Assembly (NCBI GenBank): GCA_019057385.1
Contig: JAHQJS010000007.1
Location: 841,040-905,039, forward strand
DNA from: Candidatus Borrarchaeum weybense
GTDB lineage: Archaea > Asgardarchaeota > Sifarchaeia > Borrarchaeales > Borrarchaeaceae
Reading direction: 5' to 3'
DNA: 64,000 bases
The notes below the pieces were generated by a model, which saw only the letters and a program-made list of their open reading frames with translations, did no database searches and was not told the origin of the DNA. Both the position numbers and the translations under genes were made by a program. Positions 32,830 to 51,362 of the stretch are shown here, one piece after another; position 1 is the stretch's first letter; each line of letters begins with the position of its first letter.

Positions 32830-33762
32830 ATGATAGAAAAATTTGACATTATCATCATAGGTGCGGGGTGTGCTGGTCTAGCTGCTGGGATATACGCTGG
32901 GCGTTTTGGATTAAGCACTGCGATATTTGATAAACAACTTCCTGGTGGTCAGATAAACCTCACGGATGTTGTTGAAAACTACCCTGGATATGAAATGATA
33001 TCAGGACAAGATCTATCAGAGATAATGGTGAAGCAAGTAGAGAATGCCGGTGCAAAAATCTTTGAATTTGAAGAGATTCGTGATTTAGATCTCTCGCAAC
33101 CAATAAAAAAGGTAGTTAGTGAGATGGGAGAATACGAAGCTAAGGTTGTAATTCTTACAACAGGATCAAATTACAGAAGATTAGGTATTCCTGGTGAGAA
33201 AGAATATACAGGAAAAGGCGTGAGTTATTGTGCAACGTGTGATGGCCAACTTTATAAAAAAAAGAAGGTCATAACAGTTGGGGGAGGAGATGTCGCTGCA
33301 ACTTATACAAGATATCTTAAAGAAATTGACGTTAATGTGCGTTTAGTCCATAGAAGAGATCAATTACGTGCTAAAGAATCATTGCAAAAGGATTTAGAGC
33401 GTCTTGGTGTCGAGATTATCTGGGATACTATAGTTACAGAAATCTTTGGCGATGATGAAAGCGTTACTGGTGCGAAACTGAAAAACATCAATACAAGTGA
33501 AGAAACAAAAATGGAGCTGGATGGCGTTTTTATCCATATCGGGAGCCTGCCAACTAACGACTTATCCAAAAAAGCGGGTATTGAACTTGACGAGCGTGGA
33601 TACATTATTGTCAATAAAAAGAATGAAACAAATATACTAGGAATTTATGCTGCAGGAGATAATACTGGAAGTGAAGCTCAGTTAGCGATAGTAGTTGGTG
33701 AAGGTGTTAATGCCGCTATCCATGCCTATCAGTATATAAAAGGGGGATGGAATGGCTCTTGA
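32830..33762 (+). CDS. trxB: Thioredoxin reductase
   Basis: IIGAG.AGL, ENYPG, GVSYCATCDG, VHRRD, YAAGD. Confidence 0.88.
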   Translation: MIEKFDIIIIGAGCAGLAAGIYAGRFGLSTAIFDKQLPGGQINLTDVVENYPGYEMISGQDLSEIMVKQVENAGAKIFEFEEIRDLDLSQPIKKVVSEMGEYEAKVVILTTGSNYRRLGIPGEKEYTGKGVSYCATCDGQLYKKKKVITVGGGDVAATYTRYLKEIDVNVRLVHRRDQLRAKESLQKDLERLGVEIIWDTIVTEIFGDDESVTGAKLKNINTSEETKMELDGVFIHIGSLPTNDLSKKAGIELDERGYIIVNKKNETNILGIYAAGDNTGSEAQLAIVVGEGVNAAIHAYQYIKGGWNGS

Positions 33763-36929: not shown

Positions 36930-37880
<951 letters not shown>

Positions 37881-39476: not shown

Positions 39477-40295
39477 TCAAGAATTACAGTTTGGGAGTTC
39501 TTTAGCAGTTATTGTGTACTTTTCTGCATATTTAGAAAAATATCTTGTTCCGCCACCTTCCATAATAGATCTAAATGCTTTTTCTATATCAATAAAAGTC
39601 ATACCACTGACTGCATCTATTCCGAGTTGAAAAGCGACATCTGGGATCCACGATGCTGTTGGACCTACAACCATTCTGAACACAGCATTGGACGCTGCCT
39701 TCAGAGGTTCTATGAGAGAATGCTCAATTACGGTAGATCCTGTAATAATCAAGATATCTGAGTCTTCTACATCCTCAATTTTTCTAGAAAGTTTTACATT
39801 CTTTCCAAGAGAACCCTCTGTAAGAGCAGGGTTATCATCTATAATAGTGACACCAGCAGAGTTCTTTGCTAAAAAACTAATGAAAGGACCTATCCTACCG
39901 ACCATTCCAACTTTTGAGTCTTTTTTCAATGGAAGATATTTCAGAGTGTCAAGATCAGTAGATCTATGATAATCTTCATGTTTAGATGCAATTATTAACT
40001 GGCTTAGAGCATTAACACCAGCAAGACCAACTGCTCTTTCGAGAGAATCATCAGAAAGGACCATATCCGCTAAATCCGTTGCAGAAGTTTGGTGTAATTC
40101 CCCAGGTTCCTTGAAGACAGTACAAGTAGCTGTCGCCTTTCTAGGAGCATAACCAACGCCCATGGTTCCTTCAAGTAACACCGCCTGGTAAATTCTTCCT
40201 ATGATGACTTCACGAGTATCAGGAATATGGATCCCTTTGAGCTTTGATTCTAACACTGCTCTTGTTTTTTTCAAGAAATTTGACATGACATCCAT
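39477..40295 (-). CDS. DUF364-family protein (enolase-like N-terminus + Rossmann-like domain)
   Basis: ERAVGLA.VNALSQ, KVGMVG.I.P, LIITGST, VGPTAS, EGGG. Confidence 0.7.
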   Translation of the reverse strand: MDVMSNFLKKTRAVLESKLKGIHIPDTREVIIGRIYQAVLLEGTMGVGYAPRKATATCTVFKEPGELHQTSATDLADMVLSDDSLERAVGLAGVNALSQLIIASKHEDYHRSTDLDTLKYLPLKKDSKVGMVGRIGPFISFLAKNSAGVTIIDDNPALTEGSLGKNVKLSRKIEDVEDSDILIITGSTVIEHSLIEPLKAASNAVFRMVVGPTASWIPDVAFQLGIDAVSGMTFIDIEKAFRSIMEGGGTRYFSKYAEKYTITAKELPNCNS

Positions 40296-40597: not shown

Positions 40598-40750
40598 TTA
40601 ATTAAGAAACTTTTCAGGATCCTTTTCAAAGTGTCTCTTGCAGCCTGGGGCGCAGAAATAATATTTTTCACCCTTGTATTCGGAAACTAATCCTTTTGTT
40701 TCTGCATCTTTTTCATCTACGTCCATGCCACAAACAACATCCTTAGCCAA
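40598..40750 (-). CDS. 50-aa YHS/TRASH metallochaperone (not in the ORF track)
   Basis: TTG start after GGAGGA: MAKDVVCGMDVDEKDAETKGLVSEYKGEKYYFCAPGCKRHFEKDPEKFLN; directly downstream of copA. Confidence 0.88.
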   Translation of the reverse strand: MAKDVVCGMDVDEKDAETKGLVSEYKGEKYYFCAPGCKRHFEKDPEKFLN

Positions 40751-40823: not shown

Positions 40824-43286
40824 TTAGATCACATGCATCGGCTGAAATCTTTTGAGCCATAATGAACTGGAAACTACTGATACCGAACTCATAGCCATTG
40901 CAGCGGCAGCAAACATGGGTAATAGCAACCCAAGAGCAGCTACTGGGATGAACACCGTATTATAAAAGAACGACCAAAAGAGATTTCGTTTAATAGTTTT
41001 CATTGTCTTCTTACTCAAAGCAATCGCACCTACAACTGCTCTTAAGTCTTCACCGATTAATGTGATATCAGATGATTCAATTGCTACATCAGAGCCTGAT
41101 CCTATAGCAATCCCGATGTCTGCTTGAACCAAAGCTGGCGCGTCATTAATACCGTCTCCCACCATACCGACAACTTTTCCTTCGCTTTGTAGTTTTTTGA
41201 CCATGTTAGCTTTATCAGCAGGTAGTACTTCTGCAAATACACGTGTTATGCCTATCTGTTTTGCAATGGCATGAGCAGTCTTTTCATTATCACCGGTCAG
41301 CATGATGACTTCTACGCCCATCTTTTGAAGTTTTTTAACTGCTTCCTTCGAATACTCTTTCAATGTGTCAGCTACTGCTAAAACACCTGCTGAAGTATTA
41401 TCAATTGCAACTACCATTGCTGTTTTGCCTTCACTTTGTAGCCTATTTATTGCGTCTCTAAGTGATTCGATATTTATGTTATTTTCACTCATCAATTTTT
41501 CATTGCCAATGAACACAGTTTCTTCATTCACAGTTGCCTTAACTCCGTGACCTGGAATTGCCTCAAAGCCGTCTACATCTATGAATTGGATGTTTTCTTG
41601 TTCAGCTCCCTTTACGATTGCTTCACCTAGGGGATGTTCTGATCCTTTCTCAATACTTGCTGCATATGTCAAGAGTTTATTTTTATCATAGCCATTTGAT
41701 GTAACAACGTCTGTAAGTTCTGGTTCTCCTTTAGTGAGCGTACCCGTTTTGTCAAAAATTACTGCATTCATCTTATGGGCCGTTTCTAGACTCTCGCCAC
41801 CTTTGATAAGGATTCCATTTTCTGCGCCTTTGCCCGTACCAGCCATAATAGCGGTCGGAGTTGCCAATCCTAAAGCACAAGGACAAGCAATGACTAAAAC
41901 TGCAACCATTGCCAACATGGCAAAAGTAAAAGCGTCTGACGCGCCTAAGGGGATTCCAATTAGTTGAGAAAGTCCGAAGAAATACTGAAGAACAAAGGTT
42001 ACAAGTGCTATAACAATCACTGATGGAACAAAATATCCCGCAACGGTATCTGCAAGTCTTTGAATAGGTGCTTTTGATCCCTGCGCGTCTTCAACGATTT
42101 TTATAATCTGAGCTAAAGCAGTATCTTTGCCGACCTTCATTGCTTCAAATTTCAAAGTCCCTAGTTTGTTTAAAGTCGCACCAATTACCTCATCGCCTAC
42201 ATTTTTTTCGATGGGTAATGATTCCCCAGTAAGCATTGATTCATCAACGCTAGAACGTCCTTCTCGAACAATTCCATCTACTGGAACCTTATCACCTGGT
42301 TTTACAATAACCAAATCTCCTACTTCTACATCTTCTATAGGTATCTCGATTTCTTTCCCATCTCTGATAATAGTAGCGGTTTTGGCTTGTAGATCTAGCA
42401 GTTTTTTGATTGCTTCTGACGTTCTTCCTTTTGCTACAGCTTCCAGATATTTGCCAAGTGTGATTAGTGTCAGAATCATGATAGCAGAATCGAAATATAC
42501 CTCGCCTCCCAAGAAAAATGTGATTACAGTACTATATCCGTATGCTGCAGAAGTTCCCATTGCGATTAAAGTGTCCATATTAGCCCTTAAATGTAATAAG
42601 CGTTTATAAGTCCTAACATAATACTGCCTGCCAATAATTGCCTGACCTGGCGTTGCTAGAGCAAACAGTACTAAATTTTTGAAAAACTCGCCTCCGAACA
42701 CTTCAAAAGGTAATAGCATTCCTATGAGCATTATTGGTATGCTAAGTGCGGTACCCAAAATAACTAGTAACTTTTGTCTTTTGATCTCTTTTTCTCGCGC
42801 GACTTTCTCTATATCTATCATTCCGCCCTCTTCGGGGATCGCTAATACATCGTATCCTGCATCAATAATCGCTTTTTTTAAGATGGATAAATTAGTAATC
42901 GTCGGGATATATTCCACTGTAGCCTTTTCGGTTGCGAAGTTAACAACTGCAGATTTAACTCCTTCAACCTCATTTAAAACTTCTTCAATAGTTGCTGCAC
43001 ATGAACTACACGACATGTTTCCTATGGCAATTGTTACTTTACCAGTTGCAACACCGTAGCCAACATCTTCAATAGTTTTAACAAAGTCTTGAAGTTTTAC
43101 TCTACTTGGATCGTACATTATTGTTGCTCTTTCCACATTGAAGTTTACTGACGCCTTCTTTACACCAGGTAAATTTGCTAGTTCCTCTTCGTTAGTCAAT
43201 GCACAAGTTGCGCAAGTCATGCCTGTGATGCCTAGTGTGATCTTCTTAGATTTTTTTTCTACAGAACTCTTAGTGGTTGTTGTCAT
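40824..43286 (-). CDS. copA: Cu(I)-exporting P1B-1 ATPase with two HMA domains
   Basis: MTCATC and [45 protein letters not shown]. Confidence 0.95.
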
Positions 43287-43361
43287 TTTCCTTATTCTCC
43301 TCTTTTTAATCTTCAGAATTGAAATACTAATGATATGACAGTATTATAAATATTTCTTTTA

Positions 43362-43373
43362 AAGATATATCTT
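43362..43373. promoter_or_regulatory. Palindromic operator AAGATATATCTT upstream of copA
   Basis: Perfect 12-bp palindrome downstream of a TTTATATA box; the core is repeated upstream of the PadR-TRASH gene. Confidence 0.5.
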
Positions 43374-43670
43374 GTGTGAACCCGATTATAGAATATAACT
43401 ATATTATATATAAACCTAACTTTAGAGGAATATTCTTAATGTCTTTACATAATTAAAAATCTTTTTAAAGTAATAAAGTTATTTCTTGGGTTAGCTGAAT
43501 AAAACAAATTGAATAATATGTATTAACAAGACATTTAGATTAATTAGCGTGTATTATTTTAAGAACAATAAAACAGAAAGATAAATGAAACAGTATGTAC
43601 TTTTGAACAATATCAATTCGCATCTGAATGGAGATTTCAATAAGACGAATGATGAACTAGAAGTGATTTC

Positions 43671-45440
43671 ATGAATACAATAGATCCTGTCTGTGGAATG
43701 CCTATCGATCCAGAAATCACTGAATTCAAAGTAGAGCGTTGGGGGAAGACATACTACTTTTGTAACGAGTTCTGTTTGCATAGTTTTCTAGAAGACCCTA
43801 AAATTGCGTATTTCTCTATGGAAATTGGAATTATAAACGAAATTCCAACATATAGCGGTGGTCTAGGAGTTTTAGCTGGAGATACGATAAGATCCAGTGC
43901 AGACTTAAAAATCCCCTTAGTTGCGGTGACCCTTATTAGTCGTAAAGGATACCTTAAACAAACGATAACCGAGAAAGGAGAACAGTTGGAACACTCAGAA
44001 GAATGGGATCCTTCTAAATGCATGACTTTACTTCCGACTAGTGTATATGTACAAATTCAAGGAAGACCTGTAAAAATTAGGGCTTGGTTTTATGAACATC
44101 AAAGCCCGACGGGCGGAGTAGTCCCTATATTTTTCCTCGACACGTCTGATGAAGAAAATGCTTTTGAAGATAGAATGATCACCGACCATCTTTACGGTGG
44201 CGACGGTAAGAACCGTTTAAAACAGGAAATTGTCTTAGGAATTGGCGGCGTAAAGATGCTTAAAGTACTAAATTTCAAAATAAAGAAGTGCCACATGAAT
44301 GAAGGACATTCAAGCCTACTCACTTTAGAGCTATTAAAGGATAATGAGATGCGACCTGACAGCGTGAAAAATCTATGCGTTTTTACCACCCATACGCCCA
44401 TAGCAGCAGCATTTGATAAGTACTCGTATGATCTCGCCTACGAATTATTAGGAAATGAGTACCCTTTGGAGCTGTCTAAAAAATTTGCGGGGCAAGATAA
44501 CTTGAACATGACTCTGCTAGCCTTAAATTTAAGTAGAGCTGTGAATGGAGTCGCGAAGTCGCATATGAATCATTCAAAAAAACTTTTCCCAGGATATATG
44601 ATAAGCGCAATAACAAATGGTGTTTACTCATACATGTGGACTTGTCAGCATTTTAGAGAACTCTATGACAAGTATTTACCAGGTTGGGCTAACGAGCCTG
44701 AACTCCTTGTGAGAGTTGACTCAATACCAGACGATGAGATATGGGATGCTCACACGGAAGCAAAAAAGGATCTAATTGACTTAGTAAGAGAGAAAACGGG
44801 CAAAGAATTGGATCAAAATATCTTAACTTTGGGTTTTGCTCGGAGAGCTACAGGATACAAACGGGCTACTTTAATTTTCTCTGATTTGAAGAGACTAAAA
44901 AATGTAAATAAGAGAGGGAAAATACAGTTAATTTTTGCCGGGAAAGCGCATCCACGCGATTTAAGTGGTAAGGAACTGATAAAGGAAATCTATAAATATG
45001 GAGAGCTATTGAAAGACGAAATTTCAATCGTTTATCTCGAAAACTTTAATATGGATATTGCTGCCAAACTTACATCTGGGGTTGACGTTTGGCTGAATAC
45101 ACCATTGCCCCCCCTCGAAGCTTCTGGGACAAGTGGAATGAAGGCTGCTCACAATGGTGTAATAAATTTCAGTGTATTAGATGGTTGGTGGCTTGAGGGC
45201 TGTATAGAGGACGTTACTGGTTGGTCTATAGGACCCTCACCACACGAAGTAGTTGGAGATGAAGAAAGGAGAACCCGTGAATTAGATGATCTGTACTCTA
45301 AAATGGAATACATAATCATTCCTGCCTACGATAGAAGAGATCAATGGATCGAATTAATGCAAAATTCTATTGGAAAGATCGCTTATTATTTTAACAGCCA
45401 CCGCATGATGCGAAGATATGTCACAGAAGCCTATCTTTAA
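43671..45440 (+). CDS. glgP: Alpha-glucan phosphorylase with N-terminal YHS domain
   Basis: DPVCGM...YYFCNEFC..F..DP fused in frame to IAYFSMEIG, YSGGLG.LAGD, HMNEGH, GKAHP, EASGTSGMK. Confidence 0.9.
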   Translation: MNTIDPVCGMPIDPEITEFKVERWGKTYYFCNEFCLHSFLEDPKIAYFSMEIGIINEIPTYSGGLGVLAGDTIRSSADLKIPLVAVTLISRKGYLKQTITEKGEQLEHSEEWDPSKCMTLLPTSVYVQIQGRPVKIRAWFYEHQSPTGGVVPIFFLDTSDEENAFEDRMITDHLYGGDGKNRLKQEIVLGIGGVKMLKVLNFKIKKCHMNEGHSSLLTLELLKDNEMRPDSVKNLCVFTTHTPIAAAFDKYSYDLAYELLGNEYPLELSKKFAGQDNLNMTLLALNLSRAVNGVAKSHMNHSKKLFPGYMISAITNGVYSYMWTCQHFRELYDKYLPGWANEPELLVRVDSIPDDEIWDAHTEAKKDLIDLVREKTGKELDQNILTLGFARRATGYKRATLIFSDLKRLKNVNKRGKIQLIFAGKAHPRDLSGKELIKEIYKYGELLKDEISIVYLENFNMDIAAKLTSGVDVWLNTPLPPLEASGTSGMKAAHNGVINFSVLDGWWLEGCIEDVTGWSIGPSPHEVVGDEERRTRELDDLYSKMEYIIIPAYDRRDQWIELMQNSIGKIAYYFNSHRMMRRYVTEAYL

Positions 45441-45484
45441 ATATCTTATAAAAAGAGAGTTCAAATCCTCTTCTGAGTATTTAC

Positions 45485-45688
45485 TTGAAGAAAAGCAAGA
45501 AAGCACCACTGCTTTAGCGTGGTGATGAATTGCGTGGTGTTTATAAAGTTTAGTGGTAATAAAGTCTATGAGTACCTACGGGGCGTAGGGATGTTAAGCC
45601 TGTGGAGATAAGACCTCCGTAACCCGCAAGGGGATCGAGTCTGTCGGAGAAGCAGGAAGCCTCGATGCTTTAGCACGAGGTAGCTCAC
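45485..45688 (+). mobile_element. 204-bp non-autonomous IS200/IS605 element with omegaRNA-like segment
   Basis: TTAC target, AAAG at +16..+19, left-end hairpin caccac-tgctttagc-gtggtg; ctacggggcgtagg...gcctgtggaga...gaagcaggaag; right-end hairpin; TCAC end. Confidence 0.8.
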
Positions 45689-45895
45689 TTGTATTTATTA
45701 TGAATCCTGTTATTAATAATAAGAAGGAATCCAATTTCTATTCTGAGGCCTCCTTCTTTATATGTAATTTTTTTGACCTTTTCATACTTTCTATCCCCCA
45801 GCACACGAATGGTATCAATTGGCAAAATTCTTGTCTTAACAGTATCTGGTCTAATCATCAGTTAATCTTCACGTCTATCACTTTTTCGTCTTTTT

Positions 45896-48292
45896 TTAAT
45901 TTTGTGTAAAGGGCTCAAGCAGTAGCATAATATCATTATAGATTTCGCAGATTAGTGCTTCTTTAGATTTGCCCTTCCAAGAGACATCTAGCGCGTGTAA
46001 CCATGCTTCATCTAGTTTTCTTAGAGGATGCTTCTTATCACCTTTTGCCATAAGAATCATTTCCAAGTAGTTGCTCCGTTTTGATAGAGGTATGGAATTC
46101 CATCCTTTAGAATAACTGAGAATTTTATCCTTGTTCTTGCGTTCTATTCGTTCAAATTTAGGGACTAAACGAGACTCTAAATCTTTTGGTAATAATTGTC
46201 CAACACTACCTGACTCTATTCTCCTTGAACAGAGGAAATCTAATAAAAAGATTGAAGATGACAAGTACGCAAATAAGAACTCTGCTAAATCGGGATTCTT
46301 TATTCGAATTCCATAGAAACCGCTACTCACTAGAATTGGTTTATTACACAAGAATACTATGCTTCGGTTATTCTTCAGATTTATTTTCCGGACTATCATC
46401 AACTGCGTTCTTTTTTTCTTAAATCCATTTATTTGAACACTCCAGCGACCTAAAGGATTCTTGGGTAGTTTTCCAGCACTAGCCAGATTCTCATAAGTTG
46501 TCCAGTTCTTCCGATTAAAGTCCCAGTATTCCTTTGCCCCATCTGTTCTATTAGTTTTGTGACCTAGAAAGAAATAAGATTTTAGATCAGTCTCATTAAA
46601 CATAGGTGAAAGATCTAGATCCATCGCTTCTCTTAGCACATGAACTGTTTTTGATAAAAATGATTTATCAATCGCGAGTGTTCTATCATTTTCAACATTT
46701 TGAATCAAAACATGATTCTCAGTGTCTTCTTTAATTTTCCAGCTTTTATTTGGGATTCTAAAGCATTCTTTTGGCCTTGGATCGTGATACTGAAATGATG
46801 ATGCATAATTACATAATGATACAAAATTATGTGAAATCAGGGCGAAGATTGCTGAAGATGAAAATAGATCTTTCCAAACGATTGTATTCTTCATTTGAGA
46901 ATACGGGATTGTTCTTAAAGTTATTTTATCATTACTTATGGTGATTTTCTTCTTAATAAGTGAAATTAGTTCATTTAATTCATTATCAGACAATTTCAAT
47001 AGCGATTTCTTAAAGGTTACAACTTTCGCGTTTCCTTCATAATTCTTTTGTGCAATTAGCATAACCTCTTGAAGTTCACTATCACTAAAGGCTGAATCTA
47101 CTTCAGAGCGAATAAGATATTTGACACTAAAGTCTTTTTGAAATTCTTTAATTACGTTTTCCATCGCATGAGCGAACGTTACAGAATTTGGTAAAATGAA
47201 AGCAAGAGCTCCGTTTTCCTTCAACAATTTCGTTGCATATAGAAGAAAGCAAGCATGTATACCTATTTTATCTAACTCTATTTGAGTCGGCATAATACCA
47301 TAAAGAAATTCTCGATATTTGCGAGTGATTCTATTTCCTCTGGTGAACGGAGGGTTTGAGATTAACACATCGAAATATGGAATTTCAACTGGTTTATCAG
47401 ATTCTTTTTCATTGGGAGAGCCACCTGTCATCAGAGACTCTTCCCAAGAACTTGTTTCGCGATCAGAAAAAGAAATAAATTTTCTAGGTTTAAGTTTAAA
47501 CGCATCTTCATGAATGATATTACATTTATCAGTGAATTCGAACGGGGATTGTATTGCTAAATTGACTGCTGCTAGTTCGCATGCAAAAGCAGAGATATCT
47601 GACCCCCATATTTGCTGCAAACGTTTTCTATGAGAGTTGTTTCCAAGATTTTTTAAGCGGTTATATGACTGAATTAGGAGAGTTCCTGAACCGCACGCAA
47701 TATCACCTACGATTTGATATTTATTATCAATTGCAAGATATGCTAATAATTTCGCTGGCTTTGGGAGCGTATAAAAGGCTGCTAATCGTCTTCTTAAGGT
47801 TAAAGGTAAAAGACGCTGAAAAAGCTGTCCCAAAAAATCCCTTTTGATAACTTTCTCTAGCGGCAAATTAGAAATTGTGTGAATAAAATCACTTAAAATG
47901 TTCTTGCTATCTTTCGGTAATTTTGATGCTACATCGATCTTAAAGACAACTCTGAAGCCGATTTCATCCATAACTCTCTGAAAGAAATCAGTTAAGATTG
48001 AAGGACAGGTAATTTTCCCTATCATAGGCAATTTAAATGCTGGAACTTCTTTCTGAAGGATAATATAAAAAACCAATTGAGAGATCACAATGAATGCTGC
48101 CACTTTGTAGGATGCTAATTTTAATTCTTCTTCTTGTGATTTTGTTGAGAGTTTTATATCAAAATTTTTTGCAGAAAATATACCAAGTTCCCTTTCAAGA
48201 GTTTTCAAAGGAATTTGTTTTGTAAAAAATTCTAATTCTGTCATTGTTGCATTTAAAATATCTGCTAGATCTTTTTCAGAACTAATTGTCAT
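45896..48292 (-). CDS. N6-adenine DNA methyltransferase with TRD (type IIG/Eco57I-like); no nuclease domain evident
   Basis: AFYT, DIACGSGTLL, ISNPPF, AFILP. Confidence 0.75.
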   Translation of the reverse strand: MTISSEKDLADILNATMTELEFFTKQIPLKTLERELGIFSAKNFDIKLSTKSQEEELKLASYKVAAFIVISQLVFYIILQKEVPAFKLPMIGKITCPSILTDFFQRVMDEIGFRVVFKIDVASKLPKDSKNILSDFIHTISNLPLEKVIKRDFLGQLFQRLLPLTLRRRLAAFYTLPKPAKLLAYLAIDNKYQIVGDIACGSGTLLIQSYNRLKNLGNNSHRKRLQQIWGSDISAFACELAAVNLAIQSPFEFTDKCNIIHEDAFKLKPRKFISFSDRETSSWEESLMTGGSPNEKESDKPVEIPYFDVLISNPPFTRGNRITRKYREFLYGIMPTQIELDKIGIHACFLLYATKLLKENGALAFILPNSVTFAHAMENVIKEFQKDFSVKYLIRSEVDSAFSDSELQEVMLIAQKNYEGNAKVVTFKKSLLKLSDNELNELISLIKKKITISNDKITLRTIPYSQMKNTIVWKDLFSSSAIFALISHNFVSLCNYASSFQYHDPRPKECFRIPNKSWKIKEDTENHVLIQNVENDRTLAIDKSFLSKTVHVLREAMDLDLSPMFNETDLKSYFFLGHKTNRTDGAKEYWDFNRKNWTTYENLASAGKLPKNPLGRWSVQINGFKKKRTQLMIVRKINLKNNRSIVFLCNKPILVSSGFYGIRIKNPDLAEFLFAYLSSSIFLLDFLCSRRIESGSVGQLLPKDLESRLVPKFERIERKNKDKILSYSKGWNSIPLSKRSNYLEMILMAKGDKKHPLRKLDEAWLHALDVSWKGKSKEALICEIYNDIMLLLEPFTQN

Positions 48293-48471: not shown

Positions 48472-49323
48472 GTGGAAGAACATTCTGCAAATCTTGAGAA
48501 TGATGACAAACTTATGAAAAATGACGTTAGAGATTCAAAAAGATTGAACGCTCTTGATGGTAAAACATGGACACGCTATTCTATTAGTGTGTGGGATACA
48601 GTAAAATCTCCTCAAGAAATGAAATTAAGACACCCTGCTATGTTCCCTGCTGAACTCGTAAAAAGACTGATCAATATCTATACAAAAAAGGGTAATGTAG
48701 TATTGGATACATTCATGGGTAGTGGCAGTACAGTACTTGCTGCGAGAAACCTTGGTAGAAAAAGTATTGGATTTGAGATTTCTGAAGAATTTGTTAAATT
48801 AGCTAAAGAAAGATTGGCACAGCAACACCTTTTTTCTTCTAATAATGAAGAAGAACCAAAGATATGCCAAGATGATGCACGAAACCTTCGAAACTATTTA
48901 GAAACTAACTCAGTAGATCTAGTTATTACATCGCCGCCTTATTGGGATATACATCGACAGAAAAGAACGGCAGATCGGAAAATTATTCGCCCCTATACTG
49001 ACTTAGAAACTGACCTTGGGAACATAACGGATTATTATGTGTTTATTAACGCACTTAAAGAAGTTTTTCAAGAAGTATATAAAGTGTTAAAGCCGGAAAA
49101 ATGGTGTATTATAATTGTGATGGATCTTCGAAAGAAGAATAAATTCTATCCACTTCATATAGACACAGCAAGAATGATGATGGAAATTGGATTTGAATTT
49201 GAAGACGTCATAATTTGGGATCGGAAGCGAGAATACAGCAATTTGAGACCTCTCGGCTACCCTTATGTTTTCAGAGTTAACAAAGTCCATGAATACATTT
49301 TAATTTTTAAAAAAATCGGTTAA
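48472..49323 (+). CDS. Site-specific DNA methyltransferase (N4-cytosine-like, SPPY)
   Basis: HPAMFP, LDTFMGSGS, ITSPPY, HEYILIFKK. Confidence 0.85.
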   Translation: MEEHSANLENDDKLMKNDVRDSKRLNALDGKTWTRYSISVWDTVKSPQEMKLRHPAMFPAELVKRLINIYTKKGNVVLDTFMGSGSTVLAARNLGRKSIGFEISEEFVKLAKERLAQQHLFSSNNEEEPKICQDDARNLRNYLETNSVDLVITSPPYWDIHRQKRTADRKIIRPYTDLETDLGNITDYYVFINALKEVFQEVYKVLKPEKWCIIIVMDLRKKNKFYPLHIDTARMMMEIGFEFEDVIIWDRKREYSNLRPLGYPYVFRVNKVHEYILIFKKIG

Positions 49324-49373: not shown

Positions 49374-49808
49374 TTATTCAGTTTTGTACGTCGCTGCACA
49401 ATGTTTGCAACAAAATGTGAGTTTTTTACCTTTTATTGTTTCTATATGTGCTCCTTCGTACACTTTACATCCGCAATGTGCACAGACATCCAAACTTGGT
49501 TCTATAGCAGTAGATACAATACTGGAAAATCTTTTGAATAATCTTGTTATAAGCTCTTTTCCTCTCTCCGTAAGTTCGTATACCTTCCTTTCTTTTTTTC
49601 CTACTGGTTTTAAGGTGGATTTTAGATGACCTTTTTCCTCTAGAAGCTGCAAGAAGGGATAAACAAGGCTTGGGCTAATATCTTTTTTTAGTCTTTTTTT
49701 GAATTTGTCAATAATGCTGTAACCGTGAGCTGGACCTTCATAAAGAATTGTAAGAATATAGAATCTTGAAAAGTCATAAACGATCCCATCGAAATCAGTA
49801 TTACTCAT
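49374..49808 (-). CDS. PadR-family regulator with C-terminal TRASH-like metal-binding domain
   Basis: HGYSI...SLVYPFL..LE...RKVYELTERG plus CAHCGC...FCCKHCA. Confidence 0.85.
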   Translation of the reverse strand: MSNTDFDGIVYDFSRFYILTILYEGPAHGYSIIDKFKKRLKKDISPSLVYPFLQLLEEKGHLKSTLKPVGKKERKVYELTERGKELITRLFKRFSSIVSTAIEPSLDVCAHCGCKVYEGAHIETIKGKKLTFCCKHCAATYKTE

Positions 49809-49846: not shown

Positions 49847-49856
49847 AGATATATCT
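49847..49856. promoter_or_regulatory. Palindrome AGATATATCT upstream of the PadR-TRASH gene
   Basis: Same core as the copA operator, about 20-30 nt downstream of a minus-strand TTTATATA box. Confidence 0.5.
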
Positions 49857-50493: not shown

Positions 50494-50937
50494 CTAATAT
50501 TCCTTATTTTCTAAGTACTTGGCAATATGTTTGGCAAAAATATCCAAATCTACAAGTTTTTCACTTAAGTATCTTTGAAGTATCTTTAAATCAACATCTT
50601 CATATAAATGGACGAGGACGTTCCAAAATCCCGCGATTGGAGCAAAATTCTCTGCAAAATCCTTTGGAATCACATTATTTTTTCCTAAGATTAAAAATAC
50701 GCTCTTATAGTCCTCAGGTTTTTCGAAGTTTTCTTCAGAGATCAATATTTCACCAATATCAAGTGCTGATTCTATTGCAAGATGGAAATTTCGCTCAATA
50801 GCGCTTTTTATAAGATGATTTTCTTCCAATTCACGAACAGACAAATTTTGGTAGGTCCGCAGAAAATCAACGTTCTTTTTCATATACTGCAGTTTTCTAG
50901 CGATCTTTTCTTTGATATACATAAAATCAATCCTCAA
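50494..50937 (-). CDS. HepT/DUF86 HEPN toxin with the catalytic Arg replaced by Trp
   Basis: AIER.F..AIE..LDI, P..Y, GFWNVLVHLY (consensus GFRN.LVH.Y). Confidence 0.8.
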   Translation of the reverse strand: MRIDFMYIKEKIARKLQYMKKNVDFLRTYQNLSVRELEENHLIKSAIERNFHLAIESALDIGEILISEENFEKPEDYKSVFLILGKNNVIPKDFAENFAPIAGFWNVLVHLYEDVDLKILQRYLSEKLVDLDIFAKHIAKYLENKEY

Positions 50938-51362
50938 AAAGCTAGACCTTTCTTCCTTACTTTAGACAGAAAGATCTCTGTAGCCCTCAGATCATAATAC
51001 CTCCTATCAAGGTATTTTGACATAATTTTATGTTCCAATTCAATTTTCTTTTCTCTATTTCTTATAAAAATAGGAGAATTCGCTTTGATAATTTCAAAAT
51101 TTAATACTATTTGAGTATCATTCATAATAACAAGGTCAATTTTATCGGACTTTAAGAGTAAAGATATCTCGCTTAGCAATTTCAGACGTAGATTAAAACG
51201 TTCACCTTTATCGAGTTTGTCGTTTAAATACACGCCGATATCGATATCACTTAACTTTCCTTCTTTTTTTTCAACTGTTGAACCGTACAAATAAGCAAGT
51301 TCAACGTAACGCTCTTTTTCAAAGAAGGTTCTTAGTAAAGCATTCATAGAATCATTCACCAA
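50934..51362 (-). CDS. MntA-type minimal nucleotidyltransferase antitoxin
   Basis: AYLYGS...SDIDIGV, IDLV. Confidence 0.85.
   Translation of the reverse strand: MVNDSMNALLRTFFEKERYVELAYLYGSTVEKKEGKLSDIDIGVYLNDKLDKGERFNLRLKLLSEISLLLKSDKIDLVIMNDTQIVLNFEIIKANSPIFIRNREKKIELEHKIMSKYLDRRYYDLRATEIFLSKVRKKGLAF

Follow-up and report, generated by a model that had tools for sequence, protein, structure and literature searches.

Regulation of glycogen phosphorylase is textbook allostery, and we know of no described control of the short archaeal phosphorylases. Archaeal copper loci of the CopR/CopT/CopA type employ TRASH-domain regulators and chaperones. The class IIIc adenylyl cyclase of Mycobacterium phlei is activated by 1-10 µM copper in a YHS-dependent manner, and the work on this enzyme defined the ligand pattern D/C-x2-C ... 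C-x3-C (Linder 2015, PMC4626032). The YHS domain of toluene-4-monooxygenase was metal-free in crystals (PMC4626032). The glycogen phosphorylase of Segatella copri (ScGP, 'clade 2') has an N-terminal loop and a helical domain through which the pentamer is assembled, as well as a C-terminal β-sheet domain, and is regulated by AMP; the roles of its residues H316, R507, R508, K513 and K609 have been described (PMC12912991). A literature search for YHS-phosphorylase fusions and for clusters of phosphorylase and P-type ATPase genes, which did not extend to the original TRASH paper (Ettema 2003), found nothing relevant, in keeping with the statement in an earlier sequence-only reading of this DNA that no example was known.

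The present locus lies in a window of 64,000 nucleotides from Candidatus Borrarchaeum weybense. The sequence-only reading held that an intact YHS domain is here fused in frame to a complete phosphorylase, and this is borne out. The YHS domain matches PF04945 with 50.7 bits (cut-off 30.3). Phosphorylase (PF00343) is also matched, and residues 45-588 cover positions 1-598 of the 600 in the TIGR02094 profile with 519.9 bits (cut-off 191.7); the phosphorylase is therefore complete, and the YHS domain is joined to it without a linker. The product belongs to GT35, TIGR02094 subfamily, and has the GT-B phosphorylase fold. Residues H241, R391, R392, K397 and K491, the last being the PLP lysine (codon 45141-45143), align with the five ScGP residues named above (structure 9l6i) and are invariant across 75 aligned sequences. 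The AlphaFold2 model of the whole protein, YHS included, has a mean pLDDT of 93.2, and its best Foldseek matches are the S. copri structures 20yr/9l6i (TM 0.86, E 2.9e-52). Two artefacts were considered and rejected. A frameshift or gene-call error joining two genes does not fit a conserved junction that has no stop, nor homologs that are uniformly about 590 residues long; an assembly or chance artefact does not fit an architecture that is the same in all 120 best database homologs.

Features of the copA locus and of the fusion gene (positions in the window)
Feature	Position	Strand	Basis or remark
Class II fructose-bisphosphate aldolase	36960..37880	+	Pfam E 2e-107
DUF364/DUF4213 protein ('putative heavy-metal chelation'), downstream of copA-YHS pair	39477..40295	-	Pfam
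Free YHS protein, 50 aa, probable metallochaperone	40598..40750	-	Pfam YHS E 2.4e-13; 73 bp downstream of copA
copA, P1B-1 Cu(I)-type P-type ATPase	40824..43286	-	Pfam: two N-terminal HMA, E1-E2 ATPase, HAD; CPC and MxxSS motifs
Divergent intergenic region copA / fusion gene	43287..43670		384 bp, AT-rich
YHS-alpha-glucan phosphorylase fusion gene (paralog 1)	43671..45440	+	589 aa; ORF translation, Pfam, TIGR02094
YHS/TRASH-type metal-binding domain, residues 4-44	43680..43802	+	Pfam E 1.7e-13
GT35 catalytic body, residues 45-589	43803..45437	+	Includes PLP lysine K491, H241, R391, R392, K397
PadR-family regulator, Cys-rich TRASH-like C-terminus, candidate copper regulator	49374..49808	-	PadR E 1.1e-16

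The presumed metal ligands of the fusion protein, assigned by analogy to the cyclase work (PMC4626032), are D5 (43683-43685), C8 (43692-43694), C31 (43761-43763) and C35 (43773-43775). All four are present; in 26 fused homologs D5 and C8 are invariant, and C31 and C35 are at least 90% conserved. Modelled in isolation, the domain has a pLDDT of about 90, and its top Foldseek matches, all weak (E > 0.4; the domain is small), are eL24, the toluene monooxygenase YHS and the MYM TRASH domain; phmmer relates the YHS to eL24 at E 0.031.

How widespread is this arrangement? Absence of the fusion from all relatives would have told against the sequence-only reading, and it is instead found in 120 of the 120 best homologs, at 67-96% identity. 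Fused genes, called by HMM and alignment, occur in Asgard archaea, Bathyarchaeia and Nitrososphaerales, and in a separate bacterial clade. A word-indexed search with residues 1-48, insensitive as a census of architectures, returned 27 proteins, three of them P1B ATPases that bear a YHS domain and the rest near relatives; an exhaustive search with residues 1-60 was swamped by proteins with two to six tandem YHS repeats and gave no fusion count. The fusion clade is large and mainly archaeal, and the YHS-tagged form is often the sole glycogen phosphorylase of its genome. Several Bathyarchaeia genomes have fused phosphorylases only, and in the present genome just two GT35 genes were found, both YHS-fused. 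The second, paralog 2, has glycogen synthase and phosphoglucomutase (PGM) genes as neighbors rather than copA. Because this copy, in a glycogen synthase/PGM cluster, is fused as well, the YHS domain is not an add-on peculiar to the copper locus. Where the sole phosphorylases of a genome bear a conserved metal finger, as in many Asgard and Bathyarchaeia genomes, the finger is an evident candidate for a regulator.

Paralog 1 and copA do diverge from a common intergenic region, as the sequence-only reading stated, and a free YHS gene is indeed nearby; its product is one of only three YHS matches in a profile search of the genome. The same reading counted three TRASH-type domains in 10 kb. Two of these are YHS domains, and the free YHS and PadR genes lie within 9 kb; the third, the CxxC...CxxxC tail of the PadR protein, scores 19.8 bits against TRASH_HVO_1752_C, below the cut-off of 27, and is plausible as a TRASH-type domain. 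The locus is kept among close relatives. In L007 a copA ortholog (1740 bits) occupies the same position and the free YHS protein is identical to that of the window, and on the P0005 contig a 51-aa YHS gene follows copA, with the PadR gene in the same relative place. The divergent pairing of copA and paralog 1 is kept in both of these, in P0007 and probably in P0010, and divergent copA together with a free YHS gene recurs, at 83-92% identity, in every paralog 1 relative with enough contig. Linkage to copA holds for paralog 1 and these close relatives, but not for paralog 2 or most of the family.

What, then, are the neighbors of the family at large? P-type ATPases are the commonest neighbor family of the fused loci (13/36), and, with linkage taken as a P-type ATPase within 7 kb of the phosphorylase gene, one is nearby in 25 of 99 pooled fused loci. 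Where 8 kb or more of flank is available, the count is 20/44 fused versus 4/63 unfused (Fisher p 2.6e-6), and adjacency also differs when fused loci are set against archaeal unfused loci alone (p 0.0014). P-type ATPases occur at 0.033 per kb in the fused flanks and at 0.0017 per kb in this genome; at the latter rate the surveyed flanks, 756 kb in all, should hold about 1.3. More than half of the well-flanked fused loci have no pump within 7 kb. The 25 linked pumps comprise eight copper pumps, 12 of the H+ type (P3A) and five of the Ca type (P2A), in varying gene order and strand. Other recurrent neighbors are GH57, pyruvate kinase, PGM, GT5 synthase and aldolase, and the family of the class II aldolase of the window is also found near two other fused genes. 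In the Asgard family f10, unfused phosphorylases are likewise paired with P3A pumps, so the pairing does not depend on the YHS domain. Nor are the neighboring pumps united by copper. The copper reading first offered for this locus is partly supported, by the intact ligands, the recurrence of the copA pairing and the precedent of the copper-responsive YHS cyclase, but only a minority of the linked pumps are copper pumps, and paralog 2 is not at copA. The placement of pumps beside fused genes suggests stored sugar as the pumps' fuel, and repeated siting by copper, proton and calcium-type pumps speaks for energy reserve and ion homeostasis being directly linked.

The explanation that we put forward, tentatively and stopping short of calling it probable, is that the fusion protein is a minimal GT35 glycogen/maltodextrin phosphorylase with a metal-tuned YHS module, feeding the ATP supply of neighboring P-type pumps. 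The predicted active enzyme, with the module (Asp5, Cys8, Cys31, Cys35) rigidly fixed to the first β-strand of the phosphorylase, would convert glycogen reserve and phosphate to glucose-1-phosphate; ATP hydrolysed by the adjacent pump would be regenerated through glycolysis, and the phosphate released by the pump would be a substrate of the phosphorylase. Metal occupancy of the YHS site would tune the activity or the assembly of the enzyme. The genus may have gained its two copies through a lineage-specific duplication, after which one stayed with the glycogen synthase and PGM genes, near the H+ pump, and the other came to lie back-to-back with copA. Beside copA the all-thiolate YHS site would be responsive to Cu(I), for which the small YHS protein of the cop operon is a possible donor. 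Copper may in this way act allosterically on the phosphorylase, as the sequence-only reading proposed. A copper on-switch fits less well than a metal site that is modulatory or constitutive, because the tagged enzymes are sole phosphorylases, and a switch that is off unless copper is toxic would block normal glycogen use. Weighing against the explanation are the metal-free YHS crystals of toluene-4-monooxygenase, the well-flanked fused loci that lack a pump, the preponderance of pumps other than copper pumps, the pump pairing of unfused phosphorylases and the distance of the cop palindrome from the phosphorylase.

An extension of this explanation is considerably more doubtful. The YHS domain might act as an ion sensor tuned through its ligands, whose chemistry would match the adjacent pump (thiolate/His with copper, Asp/Ser with H+), glycogen phosphorolysis then being a demand-driven supply of ATP and recycled phosphate dedicated to P-type pumps. 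Fused genes linked to copper pumps keep Cys/His ligands in 8/8 distinct loci, and in 7/11 of those linked to P3A pumps, ligand positions are taken by Asp or Ser. Placed on the tree, these observations amount to two or three independent contrasts, all concordant and too few for significance. The pump pairing and this possible match of ligand set and pump class extend past a copper-only reading. Glycolysis-pump coupling is known in eukaryotic membranes, and such a dedicated supply, if real, would give Asgard and TACK archaea a prokaryotic equivalent of it.

Might the YHS domain sense nothing? It could be a constitutive structural metal finger, most likely holding Zn, that stabilises the N-terminus or mediates oligomerisation or attachment to the glycogen particle, and that replaces the N-terminal helical domain used by larger GT35 enzymes for assembly; the pumps would then reflect a general energetic pairing of phosphorylase and P-type ATPase, or local synteny. 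The absence of a linker and the modelling of the YHS as a rigid part of the protein are consistent with such a finger, as is the fact that the match to ScGP starts only at ScGP residue 105, the α-helical domain of ScGP being the one that assembles the pentamer (PMC12912991). In a Bathyarchaeia subclade the site is Cys4 (CPVCG...C..C), resembling the zinc/cadmium site of eL24, and these genes are almost never pump-linked (1/20). It also agrees with a structural role that the YHS-tagged enzymes are housekeeping phosphorylases and that the unfused f10 phosphorylases have P3A partners too. Against it, a gene nested inside the fused clade (L044) has lost the YHS with its enzyme intact; some lineages retain the domain with Ser or Ala replacing ligands, and in the bacterial clade it is tethered, unlike an integral structural element, through a linker of about 20 residues. 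Pump adjacency, moreover, is several-fold commoner for fused than for unfused genes, and the ligand set tends to follow pump class. On balance we regard a purely structural finger as somewhat unlikely.

A second alternative accepts the fusion and discounts its neighbor: after a recent duplication, one copy landed by the cop locus and has persisted there through close kinship, with no functional tie to copper efflux. The copA pairing is found only down to about 83% identity, paralog 2 and most of the family lack it, and the two genes are divergent and presumably not co-transcribed. The spacer is also in keeping with such an accident. The palindrome AGATATATCT at 43363-43372, a putative cop operator, lies at the copA-proximal end, with 77 nt separating it from the start of copA and about 300 nt from that of the phosphorylase (glgP); its only other exact copy in the window, at 49847, is 39 nt upstream of the PadR gene. 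Aligned to the corresponding spacer of Borrarchaeum yapensis, the region shows two separate, promoter-proximal conserved blocks. That of the phosphorylase, at about 43570-43599, has no exact copy of the palindrome near it; a ribosome-binding-like AAGTGAT (43661-43667) precedes the phosphorylase start. Accident is nevertheless unlikely, as independent lineages also pair a fused gene with a copper pump, seven loci among them as well as cyanobacterial plasmids on which the fused gene sits inside heavy-metal islands, and pumps flank fused loci far more often than expected. A thiol or redox switch, in which oxidation or metal release at the Cys-rich site would alter the phosphorylase and make oxidative stress, not one metal, the signal for glycogen use, is very improbable: three clustered cysteines in a strict anaerobe, genes for ferritin/rubrerythrin, hybrid-cluster protein and pyridine-nucleotide disulfide oxidoreductase near fused genes (three loci each) and a thioredoxin-reductase-like ORF in the window (32830-33762, translation read by eye) would suit it, but pumps are by far the more frequent neighbors, the domain is retained in lineages that have just two cysteines (DCDC), and a precedent for a YHS redox switch was not found in the literature examined.

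We return to the preferred explanation, a phosphorylase tuned by its metal finger, and to the systems that it most resembles. Against the described archaeal cop loci, the window locus has the same parts list, a copper P-type ATPase, a small TRASH/YHS protein and a transcription factor with a TRASH or TRASH-like tail; its regulator is of the PadR rather than the Lrp type, and a metabolic enzyme here bears the same kind of domain. Unfused TIGR02094 short forms, as in Asgard families f18 and f10, Methanosarcina and Nitrospirota, have a catalytic body up to 67% identical that starts at the same IAYFSME strand; they differ in having no metal finger, and pump adjacency is several-fold rarer among them, though some adjoin P3A pumps. 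ScGP (9L6I/20YR; PMC12912991) is the closest solved structure, at 311-313 bits and 32% identity over residues 40-586. It shares the catalytic residues and the PLP lysine with the fusion protein, which lacks the helical and β-sheet domains of ScGP and has the N-terminal YHS finger instead. The nearest parallel in design is the M. phlei cyclase. In both, a soluble enzyme is joined directly to one YHS domain whose ligands follow an Asp + 3 Cys pattern; in the dimeric cyclase the domain is C-terminal, on a linker of 8-11 residues, whereas in the GT35 enzyme it is N-terminal with none. The YHS-cyclase fusion comprises about 26 sequences (PMC4626032) and the phosphorylase fusion is widespread, a metal response being known for the cyclase alone. 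If the finger does tune the phosphorylase, just two enzymes, this one and an adenylyl cyclase, would have a function assigned to their YHS domain.

The 589-residue reading frame that the sequence-only reading took for an in-frame YHS-phosphorylase fusion, divergent from copA, is confirmed as such by Pfam, NCBIfam, the ORF itself and the domain matches of its neighbours. Pfam places YHS at residues 4-44 (E 1.7e-13) and also finds the phosphorylase domain, and the whole TIGR02094 profile ('alpha-glucan family phosphorylase', NCBIfam) matches residues 45-588 with 520 bits; there is therefore no linker, and the YHS domain joins the first β-strand (IAYFSME) directly. In an alignment with Segatella copri glycogen phosphorylase, the nearest enzyme of solved structure, residues H241, R391, R392 and K397 fall on the catalytic H316, R507, R508 and K513, and K491 falls on the PLP-lysine K609; all five are invariant among 75 aligned sequences. 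The AlphaFold2 model (mean pLDDT 93.2; 84-94 over the first 40 residues) superposes on GT35 phosphorylases with a TM of 0.86. Among homologs the spacing at the junction is constant, and D5, C8, C31 and C35, the four positions proposed as YHS metal ligands (PMC4626032), are invariant or nearly so. It is well supported that the phosphorylase is intact and that its YHS site is intact, conserved and rigidly attached. The nearest named genome, that of the Asgard archaeon Candidatus Borrarchaeum yapensis, has an ortholog with 92% identity across the 125 N-terminal residues. The window is AT-rich (G+C about 36-39%) and belongs to contig C7 of an assembly of 4.18 Mb.

How widespread is the fusion? An architecture search in a collection of 5.8 billion proteins found YHS plus phosphorylase in 120 of the 120 best homologs (67-96% identity), with source names that include Promethearchaeota, Bathyarchaeia and Nitrososphaerales. 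When one genome per prokaryotic species was scanned, the 80 best matches comprised 32 fused loci and 48 unfused ones, which have the same type of phosphorylase without YHS. In the catalytic-domain tree there is an archaeal fused clade (SH-aLRT 97), in which a single nested unfused member represents loss of YHS, and a separate bacterial fused clade (SH-aLRT 96; Nitrospirota, Planctomycetota, Acidobacteriota and Saccharimonadota), in which a linker of about 20 residues tethers the YHS domain. Among 201 sampled Asgard genomes the distribution is patchy, 67 having a TIGR02094-type phosphorylase and only 4 the fused form. YHS plus phosphorylase is a well-supported, family-wide architecture. In the library the YHS segment is matched best by proteins of 180-440 residues that consist of 3-6 tandem YHS repeats (P0135-P0145 and others).

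There are exactly two GT35 genes in the genome, both fused and, by the same tree, products of a lineage-specific duplication (77% identity). The genome's YHS-profile matches number three only: these two enzymes and the small protein encoded after copA. Because this genome and several of the Bathyarchaeia have only fused phosphorylases, the tagged enzyme is a housekeeping one and not a stress-only extra. Paralog 2 adjoins a GT4/GT5 glycogen-synthase-like gene and phosphoglucomutase; no copper genes were found in its neighbourhood, and the sole P3A-type ATPase of the genome is 18.6 kb away (5 kb in B. yapensis). Bathyarchaeia genomes usually have two fused paralogs (L022, L023, L025, L028, L029, L031 and about 14 metagenome loci within L177-L196), one of which has a Cys4 site (CPVCG...C..C), a longer loop, and an adjacent P-type pump in 1 of 20 cases.

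The link to copA is conserved for paralog 1, the window's gene. The divergent pair and, after copA, the small YHS gene recur both in B. yapensis (L007) and on the P0005 contig (homolog with 91% identity); the P0007 contig (85%) ends within a copA that is 88% identical, and at P0010 (83%) a CBS gene is inserted and an HMA fragment stands at the contig end. Three TRASH-type domains had been claimed here: the fused and free YHS domains are matched, but the PadR tail scores below the TRASH threshold. Of the 10-bp palindrome AGATATATCT the window has exactly two copies; the copA copy, which is about 300 nt away from where the phosphorylase gene begins, is kept in B. yapensis, and the motif is a candidate for the operator of a copper regulon under PadR control. 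When the spacer is aligned with that of B. yapensis, the phosphorylase is seen to have a conserved upstream block of its own; it also has a ribosome-binding-like AAGTGAT. Joint regulation of copA and the phosphorylase is possible. A TrkA_N/TrkA_C gene directly follows the phosphorylase on the P0005, P0007 and P0010 contigs; the window has a 455-bp gap there (45441-45895). The two methylase genes between the phosphorylase and PadR genes are in synteny on the P0005 contig; the P0007 contig, too, has the larger one. The HepT and MNT genes (50494-51362) are a typical toxin-antitoxin pair.

Features of the window, paralog 2, and loci (G, sampled genome; C, contig) that pair an unfused phosphorylase with P3A
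Feature	Position	Strand	Remarks
class II aldolase	36960-37880		window's own copy, included in neighbour count
DUF364/DUF4213 protein	39477-40295	-	'putative heavy-metal chelation'; just past copA-YHS pair, same strand
copA	40824-43286	-	two HMA domains; CPC/MxxSS motifs of Cu(I) pumps; 384 bp to divergent fusion gene
50-aa YHS protein	after copA		Pfam YHS
AGATATATCT	43363-43372		77 nt upstream of copA
conserved upstream block	about 43570-43599		phosphorylase spacer
YHS-phosphorylase fusion	43671-45440	+	paralog 1
N6 DNA methylase	45896-48292	-	Eco57I/MmeI-like, 798 aa
N4/N6 methylase	48472-49323	+	283 aa
PadR regulator	49374-49808	-	Cys-rich tail
AGATATATCT	49847-49856		39 nt upstream of PadR gene
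HepT-like RNase	50494-50937	-	4-bp overlap with MNT gene
nucleotidyltransferase (MNT)	50934-51362	-	4-bp overlap with HepT gene
paralog 2, fused	C7:237478-239250		
unfused + P3A	G173:C10:11539-19042		
unfused + P3A	G082:C49:4805-11602		
unfused + P3A	G112:C70:2264-6524		
unfused + P3A	G103:C39:20715-25003		
unfused + P3A	G108:C3:62073-65550		

Is copper the common theme? At 36 fused loci and 84 unfused ones, all ORFs up to 7 kb from the phosphorylase were clustered. Among the neighbours that recur at fused genes, P-type ATPases are by far the commonest (13/36 versus 4/84); next come GH57 at 6 loci, pyruvate kinase at 4 and, at 3 each, PGM, GT5 glycogen synthase, histidine phosphatase and class II aldolase. 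With 63 fused loci added from an independent metagenome scan, the pooled figure is 25 of 99; with flanks of at least 8 kb it is 20 of 44, versus 4 of 63 unfused loci. Per kb, fused loci have 0.033 pumps and unfused loci 0.0043, versus 0.0017 for the whole genome (7 genes in 4,179 kb). For well-flanked loci Fisher p is 2.6e-6 (0.0014 versus archaeal unfused loci only), values that overstate the case since related genomes are not independent. The pairing, in varying order and strand, occurs in Asgard archaea, Bathyarchaeia, Methanoculleus, a Nitrososphaerales-labelled genome and Nitrospira. The 25 pumps comprise 12 of the plasma-membrane H+ type (TIGR01647, P3A, >1000 bits), 8 copper pumps (CPC or CPH types) and 5 P2A Ca-type pumps. 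In the sampled Asgard genomes 9 of 43 P3A genes lie within 7 kb of a TIGR02094-family phosphorylase, mostly an unfused paralog, so the pairing also exists without YHS. In the five Asgard genomes of the table (loci L103, L117, L122) an unfused paralog has a single P3A gene, or two in tandem, at a distance of 0.1-1 kb. From the mixed pump classes and unfused pairings the rule is therefore a short phosphorylase beside a P-type pump, strongest in the clade that carries YHS; the pairing with copA in the window is an example of it. The association of the fusion with pumps and glycogen/glycolysis genes is strong and well supported, and its breadth is the most useful new point.

On three cyanobacterial plasmids, Chroococcidiopsis pA (L130), Stanieria pSTA7437.01 (L131) and Leptolyngbya p1 (L132), the fused gene lies within long co-directional heavy-metal islands with a P1B ATPase, DUF2933, an ICMT-family methyltransferase, DUF5676 and universal stress proteins; two have MerR regulators and one a multicopper oxidase. 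On one plasmid an MgtA-type ATPase starts 4 bp after the fused gene, and on another phosphoketolase is the next gene. The ICMT/PEMT-family membrane methyltransferase stands beside DUF2933 in these islands and, in archaea, recurs between P-type ATPase and fused phosphorylase (L087:4983-5600, L015).

What might the YHS domain do? The main rival to a metal-responsive role is a constitutive structural zinc finger that would replace the N-terminal domain through which larger phosphorylases assemble (PMC12912991). Loss of the domain and the long bacterial linker argue somewhat against it, as do ligand substitutions and their co-variation with the pump. The main ligand quartet, and the window's own, is D-C-C-C; one Bathyarchaeia paralog clade has C-C-C-C, and other lineages D-C-D-C, D-C-S-C, D-C-C-D or D-C-C-H. 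The last three positions are Cys or His in 8 of 8 distinct copper-pump-linked loci, versus Asp or Ser among them in 7 of 11 P3A-linked genes (Fisher p 0.013). In the tree a D-C-S-C/P3A clade is sister to a D-C-C-H/copper clade, one D-C-C-D/P3A gene is nested among D-C-C-C/copper genes, and the D-C-D-C clade is P3A-linked; the three contrasts are all concordant, and too few for significance. The pattern suggests, and does not establish, a functional site with tuned ligands. Three points count against a simple copper on-switch: the cell has no phosphorylases other than the tagged ones, the partner pumps are mostly not copper pumps, and unfused enzymes are also pump-paired.

We infer that the phosphorylase may feed ATP regeneration for the neighbouring pump and consume the phosphate that the pump releases, while metal occupancy of YHS would modulate its activity or assembly. 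For paralog 1 the metal would be Cu(I). The earlier copper reading is partly supported: the copA pairing is kept for that paralog, but copper is not what the family's loci share, copper pumps being 8 of the 25 partners.

A literature search found no paper describing a YHS-phosphorylase fusion, and the accessible part of a 2024 review of prokaryotic alpha-glucan enzymes makes no mention of YHS, TRASH, copper or zinc. The fusion is a widespread, uncharacterised variant of a known enzyme, and its only experimental precedent is a copper-activated adenylyl cyclase with a YHS domain (PMC4626032).
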